64,000 nt of DNA, from contig JACUUM010000004.1 of the NCBI GenBank assembly GCA_014859305.1, forward strand, positions 58 through 64,057, written 5' to 3'. Shown here in pieces: positions 6,768 through 22,953 of the stretch. This DNA is from Coriobacteriia bacterium (lineage in GTDB: Bacteria; Actinomycetota; Coriobacteriia; Anaerosomatales; Kmv31). The position numbers were made by a program, and so were the translations under genes. The first letter of the stretch is position 1. Every line of letters starts with the position of its first letter. A model generated the notes under the pieces. It saw nothing but the letters and a program-made list of their open reading frames with translations, did not search any database and was not told the DNA's origin.

Positions 6768-8828
<2,061 letters not shown>

Positions 8829-8834
<6 letters not shown>

Positions 8835-9037: not shown

Positions 9038-9403
9038 ATGCAGGCAGCGGCACCGCAGGACGTGATGCTGGTACTCGGCCTGGCCTTCGCCGCGGTCGCG
9101 TTCATCCTGGTGGTGCTCGGTCTCAACGCCGTTCTGGCGCCGCGCCGACCGACCCCCGAGAAGGTCGAGCCCTACGAGTGCGGCATGCCGCAAGCGGGTG
9201 GGCCATGGGGGCCCGTGAACGTCCGATTCAGCACCATCGCGCTGCTGTTCGTCCTCTTCGACGCCGAGGCCATCCTGCTGTTCGCCGTCGCGCCGCGGCT
9301 GCGCGGCTCGGCGGTCGGACTGCTCGAGGTCGGCGCCTTCGCCGCGCTCCTGGCGTTCGGGCTGTTCTACGCGTGGCGGAAGGGGGCGCTGCAGTGGCGA
9401 TAG
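9038..9403 (+). CDS. nuoA: NADH-quinone oxidoreductase subunit A
   Basis: SD AAGGAG upstream. 121 aa with 3 TM helices and the ND3-type EKVEPYECG...FDAEAILLF motifs. Confidence 0.9.
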
Positions 9404-10011
9404 TGGACGGGCTCGGCAAGGCCCTGGAGCGCATCCCCGGCGGGGGCGTCATCCTGACCTCGCTGGACGCCGTGCTGGACTGGTCCCGGGGGCACTCGTT
9501 GTGGGCGATGCCCATGGGGACGGCGTGCTGCGCGATGGAACTCATCGCGGCGTCGTTCTCCAAGTTCGACTTCGACCGTCACGGCACGTTCCCCAGGCCG
9601 GACCCACGGCACGTAGACGTCATGGTGGTGGCGGGGACCGTCACGCGCAAGATGGCGCCGGCGATAAAGAGGCTCTACGAGCAGATGGCCGAACCCAAGT
9701 GGGTGGTCGCCATGGGCAACTGCGCCGTCTCCGGCGGCATCTTCTACTACGACTCCTACTCGGTGGTGCGCGGCGTGGACGAGTTCCTGCCGGTCGACGT
9801 CTACATCGCGGGGTGCCCGCCGCGGCCGGAGGCCCTGCAGGACGCGATCCTTCGGCTGCGCGAGAAGGTCGCCACCGAGTCGATCTCGGAGGGGCGCCGC
9901 TACGAGCGCAGACTGCTGCTGCCCACTCCCGCCACTCGTCACGACCAGGAGACGCCTGCTGCCGCGTCAGCAGCGGGCGAGCGTGACGGAGGGGAAGGCG
10001 AGGTCGCGTGA
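9403..10011 (+). CDS. nuoB: NADH-quinone oxidoreductase subunit B
   Basis: GTG overlaps the nuoA TAG by 1 nt. N2 cluster ligands are present: [26 protein letters not shown]. There is a C-terminal low-complexity extension of about 40 aa. Confidence 0.9.
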
Positions 10012-10469
10012 ACATCGAAGAGCTGCGCGAGCACCTCTGCGCGACCCATCCGGACCTGTGCCCGCTGTTCTCGACAGAGTTCGGGGACGGGGTGCTCGGC
10101 GTCGAGCGCGGCGAGCTGCACGACGCCGCTTCCGACCTCCGCGACCTGGGCTTCGACCGCCTGGGGATGGTCACGGCGGTGGACCGCGGCGAGACCTTCG
10201 AGCTCGTCTACCGCCTGCAGTCGCGCTCGATGAGCGCCGGCATGTTCCTGAAGTGCGAGGTCCCCCGCTCGGAGCCGCGGGTCCGCTCGCTGACCGACCT
10301 GTGGCCGGCCGCCGATTGGCAGGAGCGCGAGACGTACGACCTCTTCGGCATCGAGTTCGAGGGCCATCCGGACCTGCGGCGCATCCTCCTGCCGCCGGAG
10401 TGGGAGGGCCACCCCTTGCGCAAGGACTACACCGATGACCGCATCGTCCCCCGGCCCGACTTCATCTGA
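10008..10469 (+). CDS. nuoC: NADH-quinone oxidoreductase subunit C
   Basis: GTGA overlap with nuoB. It has the 30-kDa subunit motif [26 protein letters not shown]. Confidence 0.9.
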
Positions 10470-10477
10470 GGTATCCG

Positions 10478-11626
10478 ATGGCTCTGGACATCCATAGCTC
10501 CTGCCCAGCGGTGGACGACGAGGGACGCGCCGTCACCGAGCTCGTCGTCAACGTCGGCCCGTCGCACCCCTCCACCCACGGGGTCTGCCGTGTCATCGCG
10601 CACCTCGACGGCGAGGTGATCACCAAGGCCGAGACGGTCATCGGCTACCTGCACCGCGGCATCGAGAAGATGACCGAGAACCGCACGTACCTCCAGGTCG
10701 TGCCGCTGACGGACCGGTTGGACTACGTCGGATCGATGTACGCGAACTGGGCCTACTGCCGCGCCGTCGAACGACTGGCGGGCATCGCGCTGCCCGAGCG
10801 CGCCGAGTACCTTCGCGTCATCACATGCGAGCTGCAGCGCATCGCCAGCCACATGATGGCGATGGGCTCTGCGGCGGCCGACGCGGGCGCCTTCACGATG
10901 TTCCTGTACGCGTTCAACCAGCGCGACTTCGTCGTGGACCTCTTCGAGCGCCTCTGCGGGGCCCGCCTCACCTACAACTACGTGCGGCCCGGCGGCGTGA
11001 GCTTCGATGTCCCTGACGACGGCTGGCTGGACGACGTGCGGGCCTTCTGCGCCCAGCATCGCGGCGCGGTGGCGGAGATGGACAAGCTCTTCTTCGGCAA
11101 CGTGATCACGCGCGGGCGCCTGAAGGGGATCGGCGTGCTCTCCGCCGAGGACGCGGTCGCATGGGGGGCTTCCGGTCCGGTCGCTCGCGGCAGCGGTGTC
11201 GACTGGGACCTGCGGCGCGACGACACCTACTCGGTCTACCCGCGTTTCGACTTCGAGGTGCCGCTGGGCAGCAACGGAGACGCGTACGACCGCAACCGCG
11301 TGCGGCTCTTCGAGTGCTACGAGTCCGTGAGCATCGTCGAGCAGGCCCTCGAGCAGATGGAGCCCGGGCGGGTGCGTGCCGAGGGGCTGCCGAGGCTGCT
11401 GAGGCCCAGGCCCGGCGACGCCTACGACCACATCGAGTCCGCCCGAGGCTCCCTGGGCGTGTACCTCGTGTCGGACGGCTCGCCCAAGCCCTACCGCATG
11501 AAGGTGCGCTCCCCCGCGTTCTGCAACCTGGCTCTGCTCGAGAAGCTCGCGGTCGGCCACATGATGTCCGACCTGGTGGTCATCCTCGGCTCGCTCGACC
11601 CGGTGTTCGGGGAGGTGGACCGGTGA
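10478..11626 (+). CDS. nuoD: NADH-quinone oxidoreductase subunit D
   Basis: 49-kDa subunit motifs: GPSHPSTHGV, GYLHRGIEK, SARGSLGVYL, RSPAFCNL. Confidence 0.92.
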   Translation: MALDIHSSCPAVDDEGRAVTELVVNVGPSHPSTHGVCRVIAHLDGEVITKAETVIGYLHRGIEKMTENRTYLQVVPLTDRLDYVGSMYANWAYCRAVERLAGIALPERAEYLRVITCELQRIASHMMAMGSAAADAGAFTMFLYAFNQRDFVVDLFERLCGARLTYNYVRPGGVSFDVPDDGWLDDVRAFCAQHRGAVAEMDKLFFGNVITRGRLKGIGVLSAEDAVAWGASGPVARGSGVDWDLRRDDTYSVYPRFDFEVPLGSNGDAYDRNRVRLFECYESVSIVEQALEQMEPGRVRAEGLPRLLRPRPGDAYDHIESARGSLGVYLVSDGSPKPYRMKVRSPAFCNLALLEKLAVGHMMSDLVVILGSLDPVFGEVDR

Positions 11627-12594
11627 GCTTGACGGGCTTCCTCGGAGGGGCAGTATGGGGACTCGCCGCCGGCGTCGCGGTGGCGGTGGCGACCGTCCTC
11701 GGCGTGTGGGGCGAGCGCAAGGTCTCCGCCCGGATACAGCGGCGGTACGGACCGCAGGAGGCCGGGCCGTTCGGGCTGCTGCAGCTCCCGTACGACTTCG
11801 TGAAGCTGCTGACCAAGGAGGACGTGCTGCCCAGGCAGGCCTCGCCCGGCGTGTTCCGGATGGCGCCGCTGCTGGTCACCACACCCATCCTCATGTCGCT
11901 GGTCGTCGTGCCGCTGGCGATGACGAGCGGGAACGAGGGCTGGGCGCCCGTGGACAGCTCGGTGGGCATGCTGTTCTTCCTCGCCGTGCCGTCGATCGCG
12001 GTGCTGGGGGTGCTGCTGGGCGGCTGGTCCTCGCGTAACACCTATGCCACCCTGGGCGGGCTCAGGGCCGCGGCGCAGATGATCTCGTACGAGCTCCCGC
12101 GCTCGCTGGCGGTGCTGAGCATCGTGCTGCTGGCCGGCTCGCTGAGGCCGCTGGCGGTGCTGAGCGAGTGGCGAGTGTGGTGGCTGCCGCTGACGTTCAT
12201 CGGCTTCGTCGTGTTCTTCATCGCTTCGCTGGCCGAGCTCAACCGCGGACCGTTCGACCTGCCGGAAGCGGAGTCCGAGCTCGTGGCGGGCTACTTCGCC
12301 GACTACTCCGGGATGCGGTGGGCGCTGTTCATGATGGCCGAGTACGGCGGGGCGCTGGCCACGTCGCTCTTCGCCGCGGTCGTGTTCTTCGGCGGAGGCT
12401 GGCCGCTCACCGGGGCCGCCGGCGTGGCCGTGCTCATCGTCAAGGCCGTCGTCTTGACGGTAGCGATGATGTGGGTCAAGTGGACGTTCCCGAGGATGCG
12501 CCCCGATCAGCTGATGACCACCGCCTGGAAGGTGCTGACGCCCCTGGCGCTGGTGCAGCTCCTCATCGTCGGGGTGGTGATCCCATGGCTCTAG
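11623..12594 (+). CDS. nuoH: NADH-quinone oxidoreductase subunit H
   Basis: GTGA overlap with the nuoD stop. ND1 motifs: ERKVSARIQRRYGPQEAGPFGLLQ, LAELNRGPFDLPEAESELVAGY. It is polytopic. The track ORF start at 11161 is a spurious extension. Confidence 0.9.
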   Translation: MSLTGFLGGAVWGLAAGVAVAVATVLGVWGERKVSARIQRRYGPQEAGPFGLLQLPYDFVKLLTKEDVLPRQASPGVFRMAPLLVTTPILMSLVVVPLAMTSGNEGWAPVDSSVGMLFFLAVPSIAVLGVLLGGWSSRNTYATLGGLRAAAQMISYELPRSLAVLSIVLLAGSLRPLAVLSEWRVWWLPLTFIGFVVFFIASLAELNRGPFDLPEAESELVAGYFADYSGMRWALFMMAEYGGALATSLFAAVVFFGGGWPLTGAAGVAVLIVKAVVLTVAMMWVKWTFPRMRPDQLMTTAWKVLTPLALVQLLIVGVVIPWL

Positions 12595-14684
12595 AGGAGA
12601 CCGAGGTGGGAGGCGCACCCGAGCCGAAGGGCGAGACGGCGCCGGCCAAGGCCGTCCAGCCGCGGTTGACGGTCACGGACGGGGACGGGCGCGGCGTCGG
12701 CGCGTTCGTCGCCGCCTGGCGCTCGCTCGCGACCGGCCTGGGCATCACCGCCCGGCACGCGTTCCGCAGACCGCTGACTGTACGCTACCCCGCCGAGAAG
12801 GTGGACCTGTCGCCTCGCTGGCGTGGCGCGCTGTCGCTGCGCGGGGCGCTGGGCGCGGACGAGATACCGCTGTTCTCCGTGCTCCCCACGGAGCACAACG
12901 CGGCGGTGGACGCCGCGTATCGGGCCGACCGCCTGCCCCCCTGCGTGGGCAACTGCCCCGCCAACGTCGATGTCCGAGGACAGAACTACCACCTCGCCGA
13001 GGGCCGCGCGGCCGAGGCCTACGAGCTCGTGCGACAGCGCAACATCCTCCCCGGCGTGCTCGGGCGCATCTGCCATCACCCCTGCGAGACCGCATGCCGG
13101 CGCAACTACTACGACGAGCCCGTCGCCGTGCGCCCGCTGCACCGGATCGCCTACGAGGGCTACGTGGACGTGCGAGAGGAGCGCGTGGCGCCGCTGCCGG
13201 TCACGCGGCCGCAGTCCGTCGCCGTCGTCGGTTCGGGACCGTCCGCCCTGGCCGCCGCGTACGACCTGATGACGCTCGGCTACAAGGTCACGATGTTCGA
13301 GAAGGAGGACACGCCCGGCGGGGCCCTGAACTCCGGCGTGCCGAGCTACCGCCTCCCGCGGGAGATCCTTCACGGCGAGATCGAGGACTTCGTCCGCATG
13401 GGCCTGGACCTGCGCTGCGGGATCGAGATAGGGCGCGACGTGCCGCTGGAGCACCTGATCGGCGAGTACGACGTCGTGCTCATCGCCGCCGGCCTGCAGG
13501 TGAGCCGCCTGCTGCCCATCCCGGGCGCGGACGCCGAGGGCGTGCGCGGCGCGCTGGAGTTCCTCAAGGCCGCGAACTGGAGGGGCGAGGCGGGGGTGCG
13601 CGGGAAGCGCGTGCTCGTGATCGGCGGCGGCAACGTGGCCGTCGACGTGGCCCGCTGCGCCCTGCGCGTCGGCGCCACCGAGGTCCGCCTGTCCTGCCTG
13701 GAGGGCGAGACCGAGATGCCCTGCCATCCCTGGGAGATAGAGGAGGCGCTGGACGAGGGCGTGATCGCGATGTGCGGCCAGGGCCCTCAGGAGGTGCTGA
13801 CCGGCGAGGGCGGCAAGGTCCGCGGCATGAAGCTCAGGCAGTGCCTGTCCGTGTTCGACGAGACGGGACGCTTCGCTCCCCAGTTCGGCGACGTGTACAC
13901 GGAGGTGGAGACGGACATCGTGGTCTTCTCGATCGGCCAGGGTTCCGACCTCAAGGGCGTGGTCACGGGCACCGACCTGGAGCTGGACGAGCGCGGCAAC
14001 CTGCCCGTGGACGGCGCGGTGTTCACGACGGCGGTGCCGGGCGTGTTCGCCTGTGGCGAGGTCGTCACCGGCCCCGGCAGTTGCATCGGGTCGATCGCGA
14101 CAGGGCACGAGGCGGCCACGTCCATCCACCGCTACCTCTCCGGCCAGAGCGTCTCCGAGGGGAGGGTGGCCCGGCCCGTGCCGCGCTACGACAAGTACGA
14201 GGCCGCCGTCCTCGACGGCGTCGAGGAGACTCGCCGCCGGGTGGAGATACCGATGGCGCCGGCCGAGGAGCGCGCGCGCGACTTCCGGCAGGTGGAGCTC
14301 GGCTTCACGCACCTCGAGGGGTTGATGGAGGCCGCGCGCTGCCTGCGCTGTCAGTCCGAGGTCTGCGTCGGTTGCCAGTTCTGCGCGCGCACGTGCCCCG
14401 ACTACGCGATCCGCGTCGAGCGGGTCGACGACCCGGGCCAGCGATGCCTGACCCGCTACGAGCTCGATCTCACCAAGTGCTGCTTCTGCGGTCTGTGCGC
14501 CGAGCAGTGTCCGACCGACGCGCTCACCCACACCGGGCAGTACGAGCTGTCCTTCTACCACCGCGACATGATGCTCTTCGACAAGGGTGAGATGCGGCGC
14601 CCGCGCACGGGGACGCGCGCGACCGGTGCCGACGGCGGTGCGGACGCGCCTTGCCCGCCGGTGGCCGAGGAGGGAGCGCTGTGA
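12585..14684 (+). CDS. nuoI: NuoI-type 2x[4Fe-4S] subunit carrying an inserted GltD/NfnB-like NAD(P)H-dependent FAD/Fe-S oxidoreductase module (699 aa)
   Basis: NuoI N-terminal segment at aa ~46-86: GITARHAFRRPLTVRYPAEKVDLSPRWRG. GltD-like part at aa ~118-520: CVGNCP, GRICHHPCETAC, VAVVGSGPSALAAAYDL, GGALNSGVPSYRLP, KRVLVIGGGNVAVDVARCA, VFACGEVVTG. NuoI ferredoxin core at aa ~594-668: CVGCQFCARTCP, CCFCGLCAEQCP, YELSFYHRDMMLFDKGEM. It occupies the nuoI position between nuoH and nuoJ. Confidence 0.85.
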   Translation: MALEETEVGGAPEPKGETAPAKAVQPRLTVTDGDGRGVGAFVAAWRSLATGLGITARHAFRRPLTVRYPAEKVDLSPRWRGALSLRGALGADEIPLFSVLPTEHNAAVDAAYRADRLPPCVGNCPANVDVRGQNYHLAEGRAAEAYELVRQRNILPGVLGRICHHPCETACRRNYYDEPVAVRPLHRIAYEGYVDVREERVAPLPVTRPQSVAVVGSGPSALAAAYDLMTLGYKVTMFEKEDTPGGALNSGVPSYRLPREILHGEIEDFVRMGLDLRCGIEIGRDVPLEHLIGEYDVVLIAAGLQVSRLLPIPGADAEGVRGALEFLKAANWRGEAGVRGKRVLVIGGGNVAVDVARCALRVGATEVRLSCLEGETEMPCHPWEIEEALDEGVIAMCGQGPQEVLTGEGGKVRGMKLRQCLSVFDETGRFAPQFGDVYTEVETDIVVFSIGQGSDLKGVVTGTDLELDERGNLPVDGAVFTTAVPGVFACGEVVTGPGSCIGSIATGHEAATSIHRYLSGQSVSEGRVARPVPRYDKYEAAVLDGVEETRRRVEIPMAPAEERARDFRQVELGFTHLEGLMEAARCLRCQSEVCVGCQFCARTCPDYAIRVERVDDPGQRCLTRYELDLTKCCFCGLCAEQCPTDALTHTGQYELSFYHRDMMLFDKGEMRRPRTGTRATGADGGADAPCPPVAEEGAL

Positions 14685-15178
14685 GCACGCTCGTGGGACA
14701 GACGCTCTTCTGGGGCCTGGCAGCGGTGGCGCTGACCGGCGCGGCGACGGTCGTGCTCACCCGGGACGTGATGCGGCTCGTGCTCGGCCTGGGCGCCTTC
14801 CTGCTCGCCGTGGCGGGGTACTTCCTGCTGTACGGCGCCGCGTTCCTCGCCGTCGCGCAGGTCTTCCTCTACGTGGGGGGCGTGCTCGTGCTCGTGCTGT
14901 TCGCGATCATGCTGCTGCACCGCACCGAGAAGGGCACCCCGGACCTGGACAACCGGCACGACGTCGGTTCCGCGATGGTCGCCGTCGCACTCTTCGTCCT
15001 GCTGGTCACGTCGCTGCAGGGTTCGCTCCCGTCGGGGGCGGCCGCCGCGGGGGCCGGGATCGAGGCGGTGGGCGACCGGCTGCTCGGCGCCCTGTTGCCG
15101 CACTTCGAGCTCGTCGGCGCCTTGCTGCTCGCGGCACTCGTGGCGGTGCTCTCTATCGTCGGAGGTGAGCGGCGGTGA
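14681..15178 (+). CDS. nuoJ: NADH-quinone oxidoreductase subunit J
   Basis: GTGA overlap with the nuoI stop, SD GAGGAGGGAG upstream. ND6-like TM protein (FLAVAQVFLYVGGVLVLVLFAIML). Confidence 0.85.
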   Translation: MSTLVGQTLFWGLAAVALTGAATVVLTRDVMRLVLGLGAFLLAVAGYFLLYGAAFLAVAQVFLYVGGVLVLVLFAIMLLHRTEKGTPDLDNRHDVGSAMVAVALFVLLVTSLQGSLPSGAAAAGAGIEAVGDRLLGALLPHFELVGALLLAALVAVLSIVGGERR

Positions 15179-15486
15179 ACGTGCTCGTCGTATGTGCCGC
15201 GCTGTTCTGCCTGGGGCTCTACGGCGTGCTCGTGAGGCGCGACGTGATCGGCGTGCTCGCCAGCGTCGAGGTCATGCTGGGCGCGGCCAGCGTGCAGCTG
15301 ATCGCGTCGGCGATGACGGCCGCCTCCTCGGTGGCCGGTCCCGATCCCGCCACCGCCGAGGCCCTGGGCCTGCTCGTGCTGGTGCTCGCCGCGGCCGAAG
15401 CCGCGGTGGGCCTCGCGCTGCTCGTCAGCGTCGTGAAGCGGACCGGCAGGGGCCGCGTGGACGAACTCGTCGAGGTGGAGGGGTAG
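15175..15486 (+). CDS. nuoK: NADH-quinone oxidoreductase subunit K
   Basis: GTGA overlap. 103 aa with 3 TM helices, ND4L-like (GLYGVLVRRDVIGVLASVEVML, AAAEAAVGLALLV). Confidence 0.88.
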   Translation: MNVLVVCAALFCLGLYGVLVRRDVIGVLASVEVMLGAASVQLIASAMTAASSVAGPDPATAEALGLLVLVLAAAEAAVGLALLVSVVKRTGRGRVDELVEVEG

Positions 15487-15487
15487 G

Positions 15488-17368
15488 ATGCGGCTTCTTC
15501 TCGACGCTCCCTGGCTGGCCGCGGCAGTGCCCGTGGCGCTCGCCGCTATCGTCGCCGCCGGAGGGTCGCGCCTTGCTCCGGTGACGAGGTGGGTGGCGGC
15601 TCTCGGTCCGCTGGCCGTGCTCCTCACCGGACTCGCGCACATAGCCGGACGCGGCGAAGGAGAGGCGGCGTCGCCGTTCGTCGGCGGGCTCACCGCATCG
15701 GCGTCCGTCCCGTGGATCGAGATCGGGGGGCGTTCGCTGGACGTGGGCTACGCCGTGGACGGCCTCACCTCGATCATGCTGGTCGTCGTGGGCTTCGTGG
15801 CGCTCATGGTCATGGTCTTCTCCGTGGGATACATGGCCGGCGATCGGGGATTGGCGCGCTACTACGCCGTCCTGTCGCTGTTCACCGCTTCGATGACCGG
15901 CCTGGTGCTGGCCGACGGGCTCGTCGGGCTCTTCATCGCGTGGGAGCTCGTGGGCGTGTGCAGCTACCTGCTCATCGGCTTCTGGTTCGAGAAGCCCACC
16001 GCGGCGGCCGCGGCGATGAAGGCGTTCCTCGTGACCCGGGTCGGCGACGTGGGCCTGTTCGTAGCGCTCGCGCTGCTCTGGGGCCACACCGGTGAGACCG
16101 GCTACACCCACGTGATGGCCGCGCTGCCCGACCTCGCACCATGGGCGCTCACCGCGGCTGCGCTGCTGCTGTTCGTGGGGGCCGCGGGCAAGTCGGCGCA
16201 GTTCCCGCTGCACATCTGGCTGCCCGACGCGATGGCCGGCCCCACGCCGGTCTCCGCGCTCATCCACGCCGCCACGATGGTCGCCGCGGGCGTCTTCCTG
16301 GTCGCGCGGACGTGGCCGCTGTTCGAGGCGTCCTCCGCCGCTCTGACGGTGATCCTCGGGATCGGGGCGTTCACCGCGCTCGCCTCGGCTACCATCGCCC
16401 TGGGACAGCACGACATCAAGAAGGTGCTGGCGTACTCGACGATCAGCCAGCTCGGCTTCATGTTCGCCGCGCTGGGCGCCGGCGTGTGGCGTGCCGCGAT
16501 GTTCCACCTGGTCACGCATGCCGCCTTCAAGGCGCTGCTCTTCCTCGGGTCGGGGTCGGTCATCCACGGGACCGACTCGCAGGACATGCGCGAGATGGGC
16601 GGGCTGGCGCGCAGGATGCCCTTCACGGCGGTCACGTGGGTCATCGGCGCCGCGGCGCTGGCCGGCCTCCCGCCCCTGTCAGGATTCTTCAGCAAGGACG
16701 AGGTCGTCCACGGCGTGCTGGGCGCGTCGACGGCCGCCGGCGCGGCGTTGCTCGTCGCCGCCGCCTTCACGGCCTTCTACATCACCCGGGCCACGGTGCT
16801 CACGTTCTTCGGGGAGTACCGGGGCAACGGTCATCCGCACGAGAGCGGCCCGGTGATGTGGCTGCCGCTCGTGGCGCTGGCCGTGCCCGCCGCGGTCCTG
16901 GGCGCCGGAGCCGGCGGGGTGGCGGAGCTGCTCGGAGGTCACGAGGAGGCGATATCGCTCCCCGTCGCGGCGGCCTCGGTGGCGGTGGCGCTCACCGGCA
17001 TCGCCGCGGGCTCGATGCTGTACCGCCGAGGGCCGGAGGCGGACGATCTCTTGGAGGCCCGCCTGGGTACCGCGTGGAGCGCGGCGCGGAACGCCTACGG
17101 CGTGGACGCGGCCGTGGGGCGGTTCGTCGTGGAACCGGTGCTCGGCCTCTCCCGCATGACGTACGCCGTGCTCGACCGCCTGACGTTCGACGGCATCGCG
17201 GAGGGTTCGGCATCGGTCGCGCGCTCCGTCGGCCGCGGACTCGCGCGGCTCCAGAGCGGCGACGGGCAATGGTACGCCGCGCTCATGGGCGCGGGGGTCA
17301 TCGCGCTCATCGCGCTGACGACCGCCGGGAGCGCGCTGGAGACGCTCCTCGGATGGATCGGGAGGTGA
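15488..17368 (+). CDS. nuoL: NADH-quinone oxidoreductase subunit L
   Basis: 626 aa antiporter-like subunit: IAWELVGVCSYLLIGFWFEKP, GKSAQFPLHIWLPDAMAGPTPVSALIHAATMV. Confidence 0.92.
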   Translation: MRLLLDAPWLAAAVPVALAAIVAAGGSRLAPVTRWVAALGPLAVLLTGLAHIAGRGEGEAASPFVGGLTASASVPWIEIGGRSLDVGYAVDGLTSIMLVVVGFVALMVMVFSVGYMAGDRGLARYYAVLSLFTASMTGLVLADGLVGLFIAWELVGVCSYLLIGFWFEKPTAAAAAMKAFLVTRVGDVGLFVALALLWGHTGETGYTHVMAALPDLAPWALTAAALLLFVGAAGKSAQFPLHIWLPDAMAGPTPVSALIHAATMVAAGVFLVARTWPLFEASSAALTVILGIGAFTALASATIALGQHDIKKVLAYSTISQLGFMFAALGAGVWRAAMFHLVTHAAFKALLFLGSGSVIHGTDSQDMREMGGLARRMPFTAVTWVIGAAALAGLPPLSGFFSKDEVVHGVLGASTAAGAALLVAAAFTAFYITRATVLTFFGEYRGNGHPHESGPVMWLPLVALAVPAAVLGAGAGGVAELLGGHEEAISLPVAAASVAVALTGIAAGSMLYRRGPEADDLLEARLGTAWSAARNAYGVDAAVGRFVVEPVLGLSRMTYAVLDRLTFDGIAEGSASVARSVGRGLARLQSGDGQWYAALMGAGVIALIALTTAGSALETLLGWIGR

Positions 17369-17372
17369 GGCC

Positions 17373-18824
17373 GTGCTGAGCGCAGTCGTTCTCGTACCGC
17401 TCGCCGGCGCGGTCCTCGTGGCGCTGGCCGGCAGGGGTTCCGCCGGCCTGGCGCGCGTGCTCGCACTGGCGTCGTCGCTGGCCGCGATGGCGGTCACGGG
17501 CGTCGCGCTGGCGGGCATGTCCGGCGCGCAGGGCCTCGTGGAGCGGCTGCCGGCCGGAGGCGAGGGCGCGACCTGGTGGGTGCTCTCGCTGGACGGCCTG
17601 GCAGCGCCGCTGGTCGCGCTGACGGCCTTCCTCGGCGTGATCTCGATCCTCGCGTCGTGGCGGATCGAGCGCTCGCCCGCGGCCCACCTCGCGCTGCTGC
17701 TCGCCCTGCAAGCGGCGGTGGCCGGCGTCTTCCTCGCCGCGCACGTCCTGCTCTTCTACGTGTTCTGGGAGGCCGTGCTGATCCCGATGTACTTCCTGAT
17801 CGGGCTTTGGGGACACGAGGACCGGCGCCACGCCGCCATGAAGTTCTTCATCTACACCTTCGCCGGCAGCGCGCTGATGCTCGTCGGACTGATGATGGTC
17901 GCGTTCTCCTCGGCGAGCCTGGAGTTCGTCCCGGGCTTCGGGCTGACGGCCGGAGGCATGGCCGACGAGATGCGTGCCACCGTGTTCTGGCTGCTCGCGG
18001 CGGGCTTCCTCGTGAAGATCCCGGTGATGGGACTCCATACGTGGCTCCCTGACGCCCACGTCGAGGCGCCTACCGCCGGCTCGATCATGCTCGCGGGCGT
18101 GCTGCTGAAGATGGGCGGGTACGGGATGATCCGCCTCGCGATGCCCGTGGCGGGCGAGGCCTTCGCCTCGGCACAGCCGGTGCTCGTGGCGCTGGGGATC
18201 GGGGGGATCATCTACGGGGCGCTCGTCGCGCTGGCGCAGAGCGACCTGAAGCGGCTCGTCGCCTACTCTTCCGTCTCGCACATGGGCTTCGTCGTGCTCG
18301 CGCTCGGCGTGGGGACGCCTCTCGCGCTGGGCGCGGCGATGCTCGTCATGGTCAGCCACGGGCTCGTGGCCGGCATGCTCTTCCTCCTGGTGGGTCTGCT
18401 GTACGACCGCACGCACACCCGGGAGATGGACCGCTTCGGCGGGCTCGGGCGAACCCTTCCCGGCTGGGCGACAGCCTTCACGTTCGCGGCGCTCGCCAGC
18501 CTGGGCCTGCCGGGCCTCTCAGGGTTCCCGGGAGAGCTCGTCACGGTGCTCGAGACCTTCGGCTCGATCGGCTGGTGGGCGGCCGTCGCCGCCGCGGGCG
18601 TCGTTCTGGCGGCCGCATACAACCTCGTCGCGGTCCGCCGCGTCAACCACGGGCCCGTCGCACAGGAATGGGCGGGCACCTCGGACCTGCGGGCGGGGGA
18701 GTGGGCCGCCGTCGCGCCGCTCGCGGCGGGGATCGTGGCGCTCGGGGTCTGGCCCGCCCTGGTCGTGGATGCCGCTGGGCCCGTGGTTCGGGCCCTGGCG
18801 GCGACGATCGGGGGTGGCTCGTGA
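17373..18824 (+). CDS. nuoM: NADH-quinone oxidoreductase subunit M
   Basis: 483 aa: FWEAVLIPMYFLIGLWG, HTWLPDAHVEAPTAGSIMLAGVLLKMGGYG. Confidence 0.92.
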   Translation: MLSAVVLVPLAGAVLVALAGRGSAGLARVLALASSLAAMAVTGVALAGMSGAQGLVERLPAGGEGATWWVLSLDGLAAPLVALTAFLGVISILASWRIERSPAAHLALLLALQAAVAGVFLAAHVLLFYVFWEAVLIPMYFLIGLWGHEDRRHAAMKFFIYTFAGSALMLVGLMMVAFSSASLEFVPGFGLTAGGMADEMRATVFWLLAAGFLVKIPVMGLHTWLPDAHVEAPTAGSIMLAGVLLKMGGYGMIRLAMPVAGEAFASAQPVLVALGIGGIIYGALVALAQSDLKRLVAYSSVSHMGFVVLALGVGTPLALGAAMLVMVSHGLVAGMLFLLVGLLYDRTHTREMDRFGGLGRTLPGWATAFTFAALASLGLPGLSGFPGELVTVLETFGSIGWWAAVAAAGVVLAAAYNLVAVRRVNHGPVAQEWAGTSDLRAGEWAAVAPLAAGIVALGVWPALVVDAAGPVVRALAATIGGGS

Positions 18825-20290
18825 GCGACTGGATGGTCCTGCTGCCCACCGGGCTGGTCCTGGCGGGCGCCGTCCTGGGTCTGACGCTGGACGCCGGGGA
18901 GCGCCGGCGCGCCGCCCTGGTCGTGATCGCGGCCGGCCTCGCCGCCGGCGCGACGGCGGCCTTCGTCCTGGCCGCCCGCGACACCGCGGTGCTGGGCTTC
19001 GACGCGTTCGGGTTCGTGCCGGCGCTATGGATGATCGCGGGGCTGGTCCACGCCCTGGCCGCTGTGGCCGTCCTGGGGGGCTACCGCGCGCTCAGCGCGG
19101 CGCCCAACGGGGGGCAGATGGCCGCCCTCGCGGCTCTGTCCGCGGCCGCCGCGGGCCTCCTGCCCGGCGTCGTCGACATAGTCGCGCTCGTCATACTGCT
19201 CGAGGCGGTCGCGCTCACCGGCTACGCGCTCGTGGCGGGCGCGCGCGGCCGGCGCTCCGACGAGGCCGCCATGAAGTACTTCATCCAGGGGGCGGTCGCC
19301 ACGGGGCTGCTGGTCTACGCGCTGGCCGTGCTGTACGGGACGCTGGGCAGCGGGCTGTCGTTGCCGGACATCGCGCGCGCGGTCGGCCCGGGCGACCGGG
19401 CGGCGCTCACCGCGTTCGCGCTCCTGCTCGCGGCCTTCGCGTTCAAGTTGGGCGCGTTCCCGTTCCACTCCTGGGCCCCCGACGCGTACGAGACCGCCCC
19501 GCCTTCGATGGCCTCGTTCCTGGCGAGCGGTCCGAAGCTCGCCGTGCTCGCGATCGCGTTCATCATGTTCCCGGTGGTCTTCTCCGGGGAACCGTTCGAC
19601 GGGCCGGCGCTGTGGATGCTGGGGGCGCTCGCCGTGGCGTCGATCGTCTTCGGGAACCTGGGGGGGCTGAAGCAGACGTCGTACGCGCGGATGCTCGCGT
19701 ACTCCGGCATCGCGCAGGTGGGCTACGCGCTCGTCGGGCTCACCGTGATGCACCTCGTGGGGTTGCCGAACTCGGTCCCGGTGTACCTGCTCGGCTCGAT
19801 GTACGCGGTCGCGGCCGCCGGCGCCTTCCTCGCGGCCCAGGCGTTCAGGGCGTCGGACCCCGCTTGGGACGGGACGATCGCCGGCCTGGCCGGCGCCGGC
19901 AAGCGCCGTCCGCTTCTGGCCGCCGCGGTCACGGTGTGCCTGCTCTCCCTCACGGGGATCCCGCTCACCGGCGGTTTCTGGGGCAAGTTCCTCGTCTTCG
20001 GGGGTGCCGTGACGACGGGCACGGCCTGGCTGGCCGTCGTCGGCGTCTTGGGGTCCGTCGTCTCGTTCGGGTACTACGGCGGCGCCATCCGCGCGATGTA
20101 CCTCGACGAGCCGCGCGTCCCCCCCGTGCCCGCCGCCGGGGCGGGCGAGGCCACCGCCGAGGGTGCTGTCGCGGACAGGACGGCCGAGGCGGCCGTGGTG
20201 GCGGTGGCTCTCGTCGTGGTCGCCGCAGGCGTGCTGCCGCTGTTCGACGGGCTGCGCTTCTTCACGCGATTCCTCGCGCTGCCGTTCTAG
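18821..20290 (+). CDS. nuoN: NADH-quinone oxidoreductase subunit N
   Basis: GTGA overlap with the nuoM stop. 489 aa: KYFIQGAVATG, FKLGAFPFHSWAPDAYETAP. The track ORF start at 18575 is a spurious extension. Confidence 0.9.
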   Translation: MSDWMVLLPTGLVLAGAVLGLTLDAGERRRAALVVIAAGLAAGATAAFVLAARDTAVLGFDAFGFVPALWMIAGLVHALAAVAVLGGYRALSAAPNGGQMAALAALSAAAAGLLPGVVDIVALVILLEAVALTGYALVAGARGRRSDEAAMKYFIQGAVATGLLVYALAVLYGTLGSGLSLPDIARAVGPGDRAALTAFALLLAAFAFKLGAFPFHSWAPDAYETAPPSMASFLASGPKLAVLAIAFIMFPVVFSGEPFDGPALWMLGALAVASIVFGNLGGLKQTSYARMLAYSGIAQVGYALVGLTVMHLVGLPNSVPVYLLGSMYAVAAAGAFLAAQAFRASDPAWDGTIAGLAGAGKRRPLLAAAVTVCLLSLTGIPLTGGFWGKFLVFGGAVTTGTAWLAVVGVLGSVVSFGYYGGAIRAMYLDEPRVPPVPAAGAGEATAEGAVADRTAEAAVVAVALVVVAAGVLPLFDGLRFFTRFLALPF

Positions 20291-20957: not shown

Positions 20958-21242
20958 ATGGCCGGCAGACCCGTCCGCACGCTCATCACGGTCGTCATGG
21001 ACATCCTCGTGGTGGTCGCCGTGGCCCTCACGATCCACCTCGTCGTGGGGTTCTTCGGCACGATCGCCCAGCAAGAGTGGGCACGCGCCCTCCTCGGCCT
21101 GACGAGATGGCTGGTGCTGCCGCTGGGGTTGGAACCCGTTGAGACGCCCTACGGCGGGGTGTTCGACGTGGACGCGACCGTCTCCATCGTCGCCGTGCTC
21201 ATCGGCGAGTGGGTGCTGTCGATCGTGCGAAGGCAGGCGTGA
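20958..21242 (+). CDS. hypothetical small membrane protein
   Basis: SD GGAGGGA lies before the ATG. 94 aa with predicted TM helices (LITVVMDILVVVAVALTIHLVVGFF; VSIVAVLIGEWVLSIV). It sits immediately upstream of the ATPase gene. Confidence 0.55.
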   Translation: MAGRPVRTLITVVMDILVVVAVALTIHLVVGFFGTIAQQEWARALLGLTRWLVLPLGLEPVETPYGGVFDVDATVSIVAVLIGEWVLSIVRRQA

Positions 21243-21249
21243 CCCGCCG

Positions 21250-22953
21250 ATGAGCGTCCGCGGCAGGCGCGAGCGGGAGGACGCCGGGGACCGCGCGCAC
21301 GGCCGGGAGCGCCTGGGGGAGCTGCTGGTGCGCTCCGGCGTGGTGACCGCCGTGGCCCTCGAGGACGCGCTGGACGTGCAGCGCCGCGAGGGCGGGAAGC
21401 TCGGGGCCGTGCTGGTGCGCCTGGGCATGACCACCGAGGAGCGCATCGCCGAGACGCTCGCGCGCCAGAAGGGGCTCGAGCACGTCGACCTGAGCGTGCG
21501 GAGGATCGACCGCGCCGCCGCGAGCCTTCTGCCCGAACGGCTGGCCCGACGTCACGGGATCATCCCGATCGGCATGGAGGACGGGAGGCTCGTGCTGGCG
21601 ATGGCCGACCCGCTCGACATCGCCTCGATAGACGACACGGAGCTGCGCACGGGCCACAAGGTCCGGCCGGTCGTGGCGACAGCGAGCCAGATCCGGCGCG
21701 CCGTCGACCGGTTCCTCACCTCCAACGACGTCTTCCTCGCCGCGGAGGACGAGCCTGCCGCGCCGCCGCCCGAGGACGAGGTCGCGGCAGGCGAGGACGT
21801 GCCCATCGTCAGGCTGGTCAACCAGCTCATCCGCGACGCGGTACGGGAGGGCGCGACGGACATACACGTGGAGCCGATGGAGCGCTCCGTGCGGATCCGC
21901 TACCGCGTCGACGGCGTGATGCACGAGGTCACTCAGCTGCCCTCCTCGGCGCGTCCCGGCGTCACCAGCAGGTTGAAGATCATGGCCGAGATGGACATCG
22001 CGGAGCGCCGTCTGCCCCAGGACGGGCGGATCGGCATCACCCTCGAGGGGCGTCGGGTGGACATGCGGGTGGCGACCCTGCCCACGCCCTACGGCGAGAG
22101 CGTCGTGATACGGCTGCTCGACACGGACGGCACAGCGAGGTCGCTGGAGGACCTCGGCATGTCCGCGCAGCAGTTGGACGTGGTCCGGGGGTTCCTCGGC
22201 CGGCCGCACGGGGTGGTGCTGCTCACCGGACCGACGGGGTCGGGCAAGACGACCACGCTGTACGCGGCCCTGAACATCCTCAACGTCGCCGAGCGGAAGA
22301 TCTTCACGGTGGAGGATCCCATCGAGTACCGCATGGAGGGCCTCACGCAGATGGCGGTCCATCCTCGCATCGGGCTGACGTTCGCGGCAGGGCTGCGCAC
22401 CATCCTGCGCAGCGACCCGGACGTCGTGATGATCGGGGAGATCCGGGACCCGGAGACCGCCGAGATCGCGGTGCGCGCCGGGCTGACGGGCCACCTCGTG
22501 CTCTCCTCGCTGCACGCCAACGACGCTCCTTCGGCGCTCACGCGCCTCAACGATATCGGCGTGCCGCCCTACATCACCTCCTCGGCGCTGATCGGGATCG
22601 TCGCGCAGCGGCTGGCGCGCAAGCTGTGCGACGGCTGTAAGGCGCCGGCCCTCTTGGGCGCGGAGGAGCTGACCGCCGTCGGCTTCACGGCCGGCGAGGC
22701 GAAGAGGCTCCGGCCGCAGGCGGCAGTGGGGTGCGAGCGGTGCGCCGGCACGGGCTACAAGGGCCGGGTCGGGCTCTTCGAGGTGATGCGGGTGAGCGAC
22801 GAGCTGCGCCGGGAGTCGCTGCGCGACTCGCCCGCCGAGCGGCTGCGCGAGATCGCGCTGGCAGAGGGCATGCGGAGCCTGCGGCGCGACGCTCTGGACA
22901 AGGTGGCCGCGGGCGTGACGAGCATGGAGGAGATGGCGCGGGTGGTCGTGTGA
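21250..22953 (+). CDS. GspE/PilB-family secretion/pilus ATPase with N-terminal MshEN-type domain
   Basis: Motifs: T2SSE_N (RLGELLVRSGVVTAVALEDALDVQ), Walker A LLTGPTGSGKTTTLYA, Asp box, Walker B VVMIGEIRD, His box, and tetracysteine CDGC...CERCAGTGYKGR. Confidence 0.88.
   Translation: MSVRGRREREDAGDRAHGRERLGELLVRSGVVTAVALEDALDVQRREGGKLGAVLVRLGMTTEERIAETLARQKGLEHVDLSVRRIDRAAASLLPERLARRHGIIPIGMEDGRLVLAMADPLDIASIDDTELRTGHKVRPVVATASQIRRAVDRFLTSNDVFLAAEDEPAAPPPEDEVAAGEDVPIVRLVNQLIRDAVREGATDIHVEPMERSVRIRYRVDGVMHEVTQLPSSARPGVTSRLKIMAEMDIAERRLPQDGRIGITLEGRRVDMRVATLPTPYGESVVIRLLDTDGTARSLEDLGMSAQQLDVVRGFLGRPHGVVLLTGPTGSGKTTTLYAALNILNVAERKIFTVEDPIEYRMEGLTQMAVHPRIGLTFAAGLRTILRSDPDVVMIGEIRDPETAEIAVRAGLTGHLVLSSLHANDAPSALTRLNDIGVPPYITSSALIGIVAQRLARKLCDGCKAPALLGAEELTAVGFTAGEAKRLRPQAAVGCERCAGTGYKGRVGLFEVMRVSDELRRESLRDSPAERLREIALAEGMRSLRRDALDKVAAGVTSMEEMARVVV

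Follow-up and report, generated by a model that had tools for sequence, protein, structure and literature searches.

In a 64,000-nucleotide stretch of a Coriobacteriia bacterium genome (GenBank assembly GCA_014859305.1, contig JACUUM010000004.1, positions 58 to 64,057; this stretch is referred to here as the window), the nuoI gene of a complex I operon encodes a 699-amino-acid (aa) product whose NuoI sequence is interrupted by a flavoprotein cassette of the NfnL/GltD type (aa 93 to 589; residues are numbered from M1, the ATG at position 12585 of the window). We consider it likely, with a probability of roughly 0.8, that this insert is a member of a large, pre-existing NfnL/GltD-like class with a circularly permuted iron-sulfur (Fe-S) subdomain, for which NuoI serves as the host. 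Of this reading, our data demonstrate that the subdomain is permuted, that this layout is distributed across the family, and that the cassette is cleanly inserted in NuoI. An odd order of the cysteines had been pointed out in an initial annotation of the window, and our analysis is mostly a clarification of that observation: the order is real, yet it is standard for the subfamily that donated the insert. What is new is NuoI as the host of the permuted cassette.

Circular permutation of the inserted Fe-S subdomain

In canonical GltD, NfnB, and DPD, the Fe-S subdomain opens with an element of about 40 residues (F-x-E-V...EA-x-R-C-x2-C, here called the alpha element), followed by the beta element; this yields the motif order C-x2-C-x4-C-x3-CP and C-x(3-5)-C-x3-C, all before the flavin domains. 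That order was not found in the product. Instead, the alpha element follows the flavin domains, to which it is connected by a linker of about 45 residues, and the cassette runs from the beta element through the flavin adenine dinucleotide (FAD) and NAD(P)H domains and the linker to the alpha element, with no CxxC directly upstream of C-x3-CP in a check of the motif order. Since the defining colinear order of the Fe-S motifs was tested for and is absent, the product is not a canonical GltD or NfnB. A sequence check placed every motif where the initial annotation had put it, with CVGNCP at aa 120 to 125, a second cysteine group at aa 160 to 171, and RDFRQVELGF...EAARCLRC at aa 565 to 589, followed by the NuoI motif. 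The accompanying statement that the insert opens directly at CVGNCP needs correction, as C120 is preceded by some 25 residues of the insert, among them a confidently predicted helix (aa 101 to 113).

When aa 546 to 593 were searched alone against 177,635 PDB sequences, five matches were returned, all of the NfnB type. Three of them were to the N termini of canonical NfnB proteins (5vj7_A, residues 6 to 48; 5jca_L, 7 to 48; and 4ylf_B, 11 to 44; E values of about 3e-4), with C586 and C589 falling on Cys39 and Cys42 of 4ylf_B; in 9bov_A and 8oh5_C, the matched residues (525 to 566) are located downstream of the flavin domains. The remainder of the module, aa 118 to 521, aligned to NfnB residues 46/50 to 462/472. 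Because aa 546 to 593 match the start of NfnB and aa 118 to 521 match what comes after it, the two pieces are swapped relative to NfnB.

Profile searches were performed on the native product and on rearranged versions of it. Fer4_20, the canonical-order Pfam profile, matched the native product only at aa 117 to 190, through profile positions 29 to 105 of 113, with the N-terminal third absent. We built in silico an un-permuted construct, in which aa 552 to 589 were joined directly to aa 116 onward, recreating C-x2-C-x4-C-x3-CP, as well as a control construct in which the moved segment was reversed. The un-permuted construct scored 79.7 bits with Fer4_20 (positions 1 to 105, in one stretch), compared to 51.3 bits for the native order, in a partial match (profile positions 19 to 105), and 49.9 bits for the reversed control. 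Similarly, TIGR01316 aligned with the un-permuted construct from end to end (positions 1 to 449 of 449; 283.7 bits versus 248.4 bits for the control), and the construct gained 22 to 26 bits with TIGR01317 and TIGR01318. In a looser construct, where the native leader of 27 residues still separated the two elements, the TIGR01317 alignment became longer without a higher score; only the tight junction with its C-x2-C-x4-C spacing raised the profile scores. The native scores lie under the canonical cut-offs throughout (TIGR01316, 262 versus 472 bits; TIGR01317, 200 versus 448 bits; TIGR01318, 185 versus 483 bits). Judged from these alignments, the Fe-S subdomain of the insert is circularly permuted with respect to canonical GltD, NfnB, and DPD, as had been suggested, and the break lies between the second and third cysteines of the canonical C-x2-C-x4-C-x3-CP motif.

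NuoI as host and the origin of the permuted order

Deletion of aa 93 to 589 in silico left a protein of 166 aa that matched TIGR01971 in one stretch over positions 1 to 120 of 121, at 120 bits (cut-off, 113.05); the native product scored 101 bits in two stretches, below that cut-off. Because the excised protein is a complete NuoI, the cassette represents a clean insertion into the short loop that connects RGxxxL to the first cysteine of NuoI motif 1, and, by its sequence, the host part is NuoI once the insert has been removed. About 40 solved NuoI/TYKY/Nqo9 chains align only from aa 588 to 592 onward. Together with the completeness of the excised NuoI, this excludes at the sequence level the possibility, raised along with the initial annotation, that the RCLRC pair is simply an N-terminal extension of an ordinary NuoI.

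The initial annotation also implied that the motif order was peculiar to this protein, and in this respect it did not hold: the permutation is the normal layout of a known GltD subfamily with solved structures. The best PDB sequence matches were 9bov_A (Caldicellulosiruptor NfnA), 8oh5_C (Sporomusa StnC), and 9n5u_A (Thermococcus NfnA). Colinearity with the product extends over aa 111 to 643 in 9bov_A and 8oh5_C, including the post-flavin element, with their residues 95 to 566 corresponding to the cassette; 9n5u_A matches the element in a second, weaker stretch. A confident AlphaFold2 (AF2) model, obtained in a second run from 71 diverse sequences (predicted local distance difference test [pLDDT] score, 88.6; predicted template modeling score [pTM], 0.85; pLDDT of 82 to 95 in the linker, aa 520 to 564), was searched with Foldseek. 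NfnA/StnC structures were the best matches (query-based template modeling score [TMq] of 0.62 over about 600 columns), and canonical NfnB reached a TMq of 0.53 over 426 columns. Among the NCBIfam profiles, the best match, PRK12771, aligned over its positions 35 to 561 (of 566) with aa 105 to 648, colinearly with the permuted order. To its last residue, the cassette is colinear with PRK12771 positions 37 to 511 and with PRK12814 positions 98 to 572, and the YgfK profile (TIGR03315) is likewise colinear with the permuted order.

The distribution of this layout was assessed in a census by hidden Markov model (HMM) columns, covering the 150 best representatives in a 50%-identity clustered library of 1.84 billion proteins. 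A cysteine was present at the position of C586 in 148 of the 150 and at that of C589 in 145, and the beta-element cysteines were present in 145 to 149. Only 1 of 145 had a CxxC shortly before its C120 equivalent. In 64 of 145 representatives, the module is located at the protein N terminus, without any insertion. Past the CxxC, the sequence continues into a ferredoxin at a spacing of 10 (49 representatives) or 2 (31 representatives), into NuoI at a spacing of 4 (13 representatives), into NuoG-like domains, or into nothing. Three proteins (P0169, P0170, and P0206) stop at or just past the post-flavin RC-x2-C, P0170 exactly at ...RCFQC; these may be either permuted modules in a minimal form that stands on its own or gene calls that were truncated.

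Because the same order is found in 148 of the 150 representatives, in solved structures, and in NCBIfam profiles, the permutation is older than the insertion into NuoI and represents a pre-adaptation rather than a response to insertion. The opposite scenario, in which the permutation arose as a specific adaptation when a canonical GltD-type module entered NuoI, follows a sound logic in that an inserted domain needs adjacent termini, and the spacing of 4 between C589 and C594 is indeed specific to the NuoI fusions. However, the order is shared by the closest representatives in many other hosts or in none, as well as by the solved NfnA/StnC structures and by PRK12771, PRK12814, and YgfK, which makes this scenario very improbable.

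Given that the source is a metagenome-assembled genome (MAG), the gene might also be suspected of being an assembly or annotation chimera, through a MAG artifact or a frameshift fusion, in which case the order of its motifs would be meaningless. Yet the gene is a single, uninterrupted open reading frame with a high third-position GC content of 0.86, similar to that of neighboring genes, and more than 100 proteins with 66 to 78% identity were found in independent samples. Relatives are present in 285 scanned species-level genomes, mostly of Coriobacteriia/Anaerosomatales, and the nuoH-I-nuoJ arrangement recurs within Coriobacteriia. The same architecture and operon position are found in an Elusimicrobia MAG (49% identity; locus L070, with nuoH and nuoJ on either side according to Pfam), and a relative with 45% identity occurs in a Geothermocultoraceae MAG, where only the gene-size pattern of the locus matches. 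The chances of a chimera are therefore negligible. This spread, along with the invariance of all 15 cluster cysteines, points to selection. There are, finally, hints at the sequence level that the cassette may have been fused to NuoI independently more than once. In a crude neighbor-joining tree of the module, the NuoI fusions P0142, P0151, and P0164, which have Lys186 and YRR, were placed among non-NuoI proteins, apart from the His-type fusions P0121 to P0127.

Predicted cluster ligands, electron path, and gene context

In Thermotoga maritima NfnB, the distal cluster is held by Cys39, Cys42, Cys47, and Cys100 and the FAD-proximal cluster by Cys51, Cys90, Cys96, and Glu117 (PMC7596348, citing Demmer 2015). 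The GltD domain of StnC (aa 102 to 565) contains two [4Fe-4S] clusters plus FAD, and cluster C7 of StnC has an unusual ligand in the strictly conserved Lys170 (PMC10482914). Transferred to the insert by homology, these assignments predict a distal [4Fe-4S] cluster to which the start of the module would contribute C120 and C171 and the end C586 and C589; C124, C163, and C167 would bind the proximal cluster, probably together with His186. The latter aligns without gaps to StnC Lys170, and its counterpart in NfnB is Glu117. Among the 150 representatives, this position is occupied by Lys in 130 and by Glu in 8, and His was seen only in the 8 nearest NuoI fusions; His186 might help to set the potential of the first cluster. 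Altogether, a count of the kind called for in the initial annotation assigns four putative [4Fe-4S] sites to the subunit, with 15 ligand cysteines, all of them invariant; the beta-element cysteines, C586, and C589 are invariant in both homologue alignments (A1 and A2). In NuoI motif 2 (K-C-C-F-C-G-L-C), ligand C632 is followed directly by a further, almost invariant cysteine, Cys633 (14481-14483).

If one cubane is indeed held jointly by the ligand-bearing segments at the start and end of the cassette, this explains both why the ends of the insert fit into one NuoI loop and why only four residues separate C589 from C594, and the distance between the cassette ends would be no more than a few angstroms. 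The proposal that both ends come together in one Fe-S site directly upstream of the first NuoI motif, with the cysteine pair adjoining the NuoI ligands, is thereby supported by homology. Conversely, C586-x2-C589-x4-C594 copies the canonical C-x2-C-x4-C motif, and C594 could in principle be its third cysteine. One could accordingly imagine that C586 and C589 serve the NuoI part instead, either binding its first cluster as substitute or additional ligands or contributing to a fifth metal site, and that the distal GltD cluster is missing or incomplete. NuoI homology, however, begins only at aa 588 to 592 in the solved chains, the pair is not needed for a complete NuoI, as the excised protein shows, and the invariant C120 and C171 would be left partnerless. 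Moreover, the pair aligns to Cys39 and Cys42 of NfnB, known distal-cluster ligands (PMC7596348), and it is kept in P0169, P0170, and P0206, which apparently have no following ferredoxin (although these may be truncated calls). We therefore regard this assignment as quite improbable and favor a distal cluster shared by the two ends of the permuted module.

With regard to the nucleotide, a Tyr-Arg-Arg (YRR) sequence is the NADPH-phosphate motif of NfnB and StnC (PMC7596348). The representatives have CLE in 106 of 150 cases and YRR in 28 of 150, and the NuoI fusions include both types. The presence of CLE in place of YRR in the product suggests NADH as the nucleotide. Electrons would then pass from NAD(P)H, probably NADH, via FAD to the proximal and distal clusters, and from there through the two NuoI clusters to cluster N2 of NuoB and on to quinone. 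The cassette, with some 500 residues lodged in a loop of the host Fe-S protein and its ends presumably meeting on the distal cubane, could act as an input module replacing NuoEFG.

A permuted cassette that is real but serves for electron output, forms a side branch, or interacts with another partner might be considered as well, for example, in a reverse ferredoxin:NAD(P)+ oxidoreductase like the Mbx-type complexes. GltD-bearing Mbx-like complexes have been proposed to reduce NAD(P)+ (PMC4758237), the hosts are anaerobes without complexes II and III (PMC9686372), and the occurrence of either CLE or YRR in NuoI fusions would fit such a role. On the other hand, the 11 genes of the operon include no evident second input site, and the homology-based chain of clusters would lead straight from FAD to the NuoI clusters. 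We consider an output role rather unlikely, though clearly less so than the other alternatives, and retain the input module as the preferred reading.

Several points weigh against the interpretation given here. First, an initial AF2 run, based on 50 close homologues (65 to 77% identity), was set aside, with all Fe-S segments at pLDDT values of <50. Second, mean-field direct-coupling analysis of 269 sequences (effective number, about 200), in which gap artifacts were dominant, yielded no usable contacts between aa 553 to 592 and aa 117 to 190; the proximity of C586/C589 to C120/C171 is predicted by homology, and the distal-cluster ligands are neither listed in the StnC/NfnA papers nor numbered in the Stn supplementary files. 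Third, with 432.8 bits versus a cut-off of 516 for PRK12771, the product is not a scoring member of its best-matching family (for PRK12814, too, it stays below the cut-off, at 341 versus 916 bits), and the position of the fourth proximal ligand is occupied by His186 rather than Lys. Finally, we infer the ligand assignments, cofactor binding, nucleotide preference, and the direction of electron flow, and hence the NAD(P)H-input function as a whole; for Anaerosomatales (OPB41) isolates, which carry nuoNMLKJIHDCBA without NuoEFG, an alternative donor such as ferredoxin was proposed in a paper in which the insert is unmentioned (PMC9686372).

We are slightly inclined toward a broader view, in which the permuted module represents a "plug-in" topological class, unnamed in the literature searched, with its ends meeting on one [4Fe-4S] cluster, that can be spliced into unrelated Fe-S hosts. 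NuoI would then be an undescribed host, and in Anaerosomatales and a few further lineages, perhaps on more than one occasion, the insertion would have made the NuoEFG-less, 11-subunit complex I a self-contained NAD(P)H:quinone oxidoreductase. The permutation explains how a flavoprotein of the NfnA/StnC type can sit inside host Fe-S domains, and the cassette in NuoI provides a testable candidate for the electron donor of the NuoEFG-less complex I of Anaerosomatales (OPB41).

Regarding the locus (Table 1), the Pfam neighbors of the insert-bearing gene are nuoH (PF00146) on one side and nuoJ (PF00499) on the other, and, because of these neighbors and the other nuo genes, the gene occupies the nuoI position of an 11-gene complex I operon. 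Pfam searches detected no nuoE, nuoF, or nuoG in this operon (9038-20290), the rest of the genome not having been searched. The operon is preceded by a gene for an ABC-F ATPase (6768-8834) and followed by one for a type II/IV secretion ATPase (21139-22953). The identical NCBI protein (P0001), named "FAD-dependent oxidoreductase [Coriobacteriia bacterium]," has 692 aa, with a start 7 codons later; the ATG at 12585 lies within the final codons of nuoH, and 12585-12605 represents the 7 extra codons relative to deposited P0001.

Table 1. Features of the insert-bearing nuoI gene and its operon (window coordinates)
Feature	Coordinates	Strand	Basis or remark
nuo operon, nuoA-B-C-D-H-(I with insert)-J-K-L-M-N	9038..20290	+	Pfam match for every gene
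nuoA	9038-9403		First gene of operon; nuoN ends at 20290
nuoI gene with insert	12585..14684	+	699 aa from ATG 12585
NuoI N-terminal part, aa 37-92, including TVRYPAEK...RWRGALSLRG	12693..12860	+	TIGR01971 match after splicing to aa 590-699
Inserted NfnL/GltD-like flavoprotein cassette, aa 93-589	12861..14351	+	Colinear with PRK12771, PRK12814, 9bov_A, 8oh5_C
Beta element of Fe-S subdomain, aa 117-190: C120-x3-C124-P, C163-x3-C167-x3-C171	12933..13154	+	Fer4_20 profile 29-105/113
CVGNCP, C120-P125	12942-12959	+	Ahead of FAD/NAD(P)H domains
GRICHHPCETAC, aa 160-171 (G160-C171)	13062-13097	+	Ahead of FAD/NAD(P)H domains
His186	13140..13142	+	Non-Cys fourth-ligand position of putative FAD-proximal cluster; ungapped alignment to 8oh5_C
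FAD and NAD(P)H dinucleotide-binding domains, aa 211-505	13215..14099	+	Pyr_redox_2, 92 bits; fold match
C371-L372-E373	13695-13703	+	Opposite YRR (NADPH-phosphate motif) in StnC alignment
Linker, aa 520-564, from end of flavin domain back to Fe-S subdomain	14142..14276	+	Conserved R527, R530, P531, V532, P533
Alpha element, aa 565-589, RDFRQVELGF...EAARC586LRC589	14277..14351	+	N-terminal element of canonical GltD/NfnB, translocated
NuoI 2x[4Fe-4S] ferredoxin core and tail, aa 590-669	14352..14591	+	TIGR01971 positions 40-120
NuoI motif 1, C594-x2-C597-x2-C600-x3-C604-P605	14364-14399	+	C594 four residues past C589
NuoI motif 2, C632/635/638/642-P643	14478-14513	+	Cysteines of both NuoI CxxCxxCxxxCP motifs invariant

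Comparison with known systems

In a literature search for permutation in GltD/NfnB-type families or for GltD insertion in NuoI, we found neither described, the only related report being that of a substitution in Mbx-like operons (PMC4758237), and the word "permut" is absent from the structural papers on StnC and NfnA. The closest known counterparts are the NfnL-like (GltD-like) domains of NfnA/StnC in Bfu-type transhydrogenases (8OH5 chain C, 9BOV chain A, and 9N5U chain A), which show the same order of C-x3-CP, C-x3-C-x3-C, FAD/NADPH domains, linker, and NF-x-E-V...EA-x-RCL-x-C, and are colinear with the product over aa 111 to 590 (E values of 1e-85 to 1e-90; 33 to 34% identity). In these proteins, too, the module is inserted inside a host Fe-S domain (PMC12018979). 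There, however, the module resides in a HydA/NuoG-like subunit belonging to a soluble bifurcating enzyme, as opposed to NuoI of a membrane complex, and NfnA/StnC have the Lys proximal ligand and YRR, whereas the product has His186 and CLE.

Canonical NfnB/NfnL, GltD, SudA, and DPD (Fer4_20 plus Pyr_redox_2; 4YLF, 5JCA, 6S6S, and 1H7X) share the fold, the same seven cysteines, and the one non-Cys ligand position, but their alpha element, with the first two cysteines, is N-terminal, and they occur as free-standing subunits or terminal fusions. PRK12771, like the product, continues into a following 2x[4Fe-4S] ferredoxin. PRK12771, PRK12814, and TIGR03315, below the cut-offs of which the product falls alike, nonetheless lack the N-terminal part and the C-terminal tail of NuoI, and their spacing between the CxxC and the ferredoxin is 10 or 2 instead of 4. 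With NuoI/Nqo9/TYKY, the product shares TxxYPxEK...RxRG, two CxxCxxCxxxCP motifs, the RYxLDxxKC spacer, the C-terminal tail, and the position between nuoH and nuoJ; ordinary NuoI, in contrast, is without the ~500 residues that the product carries just before the first cluster cysteine.

Finally, two systems combine a NuoI-like ferredoxin and a GltD-like NAD(P)H flavoprotein in one polypeptide of a complex I-like assembly, as is the case here. In Mbx-like operons of Thermotoga, a GltD-related flavoprotein is said to replace NuoI (PMC4758237). The PRK13984 family, judged here from its profile, represents a tandem fusion of a NuoI-like ferredoxin (positions 19 to 115) followed by a GltD module in canonical order (positions 158 to 609), a layout similar to that of the Mbx-like case. 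The product is not a member of the latter family, as it scores 337.7 versus 946 bits and matches the profile in two stretches and in the wrong order: the tandem fusion keeps the canonical order, whereas the internal insertion uses the permuted cassette.

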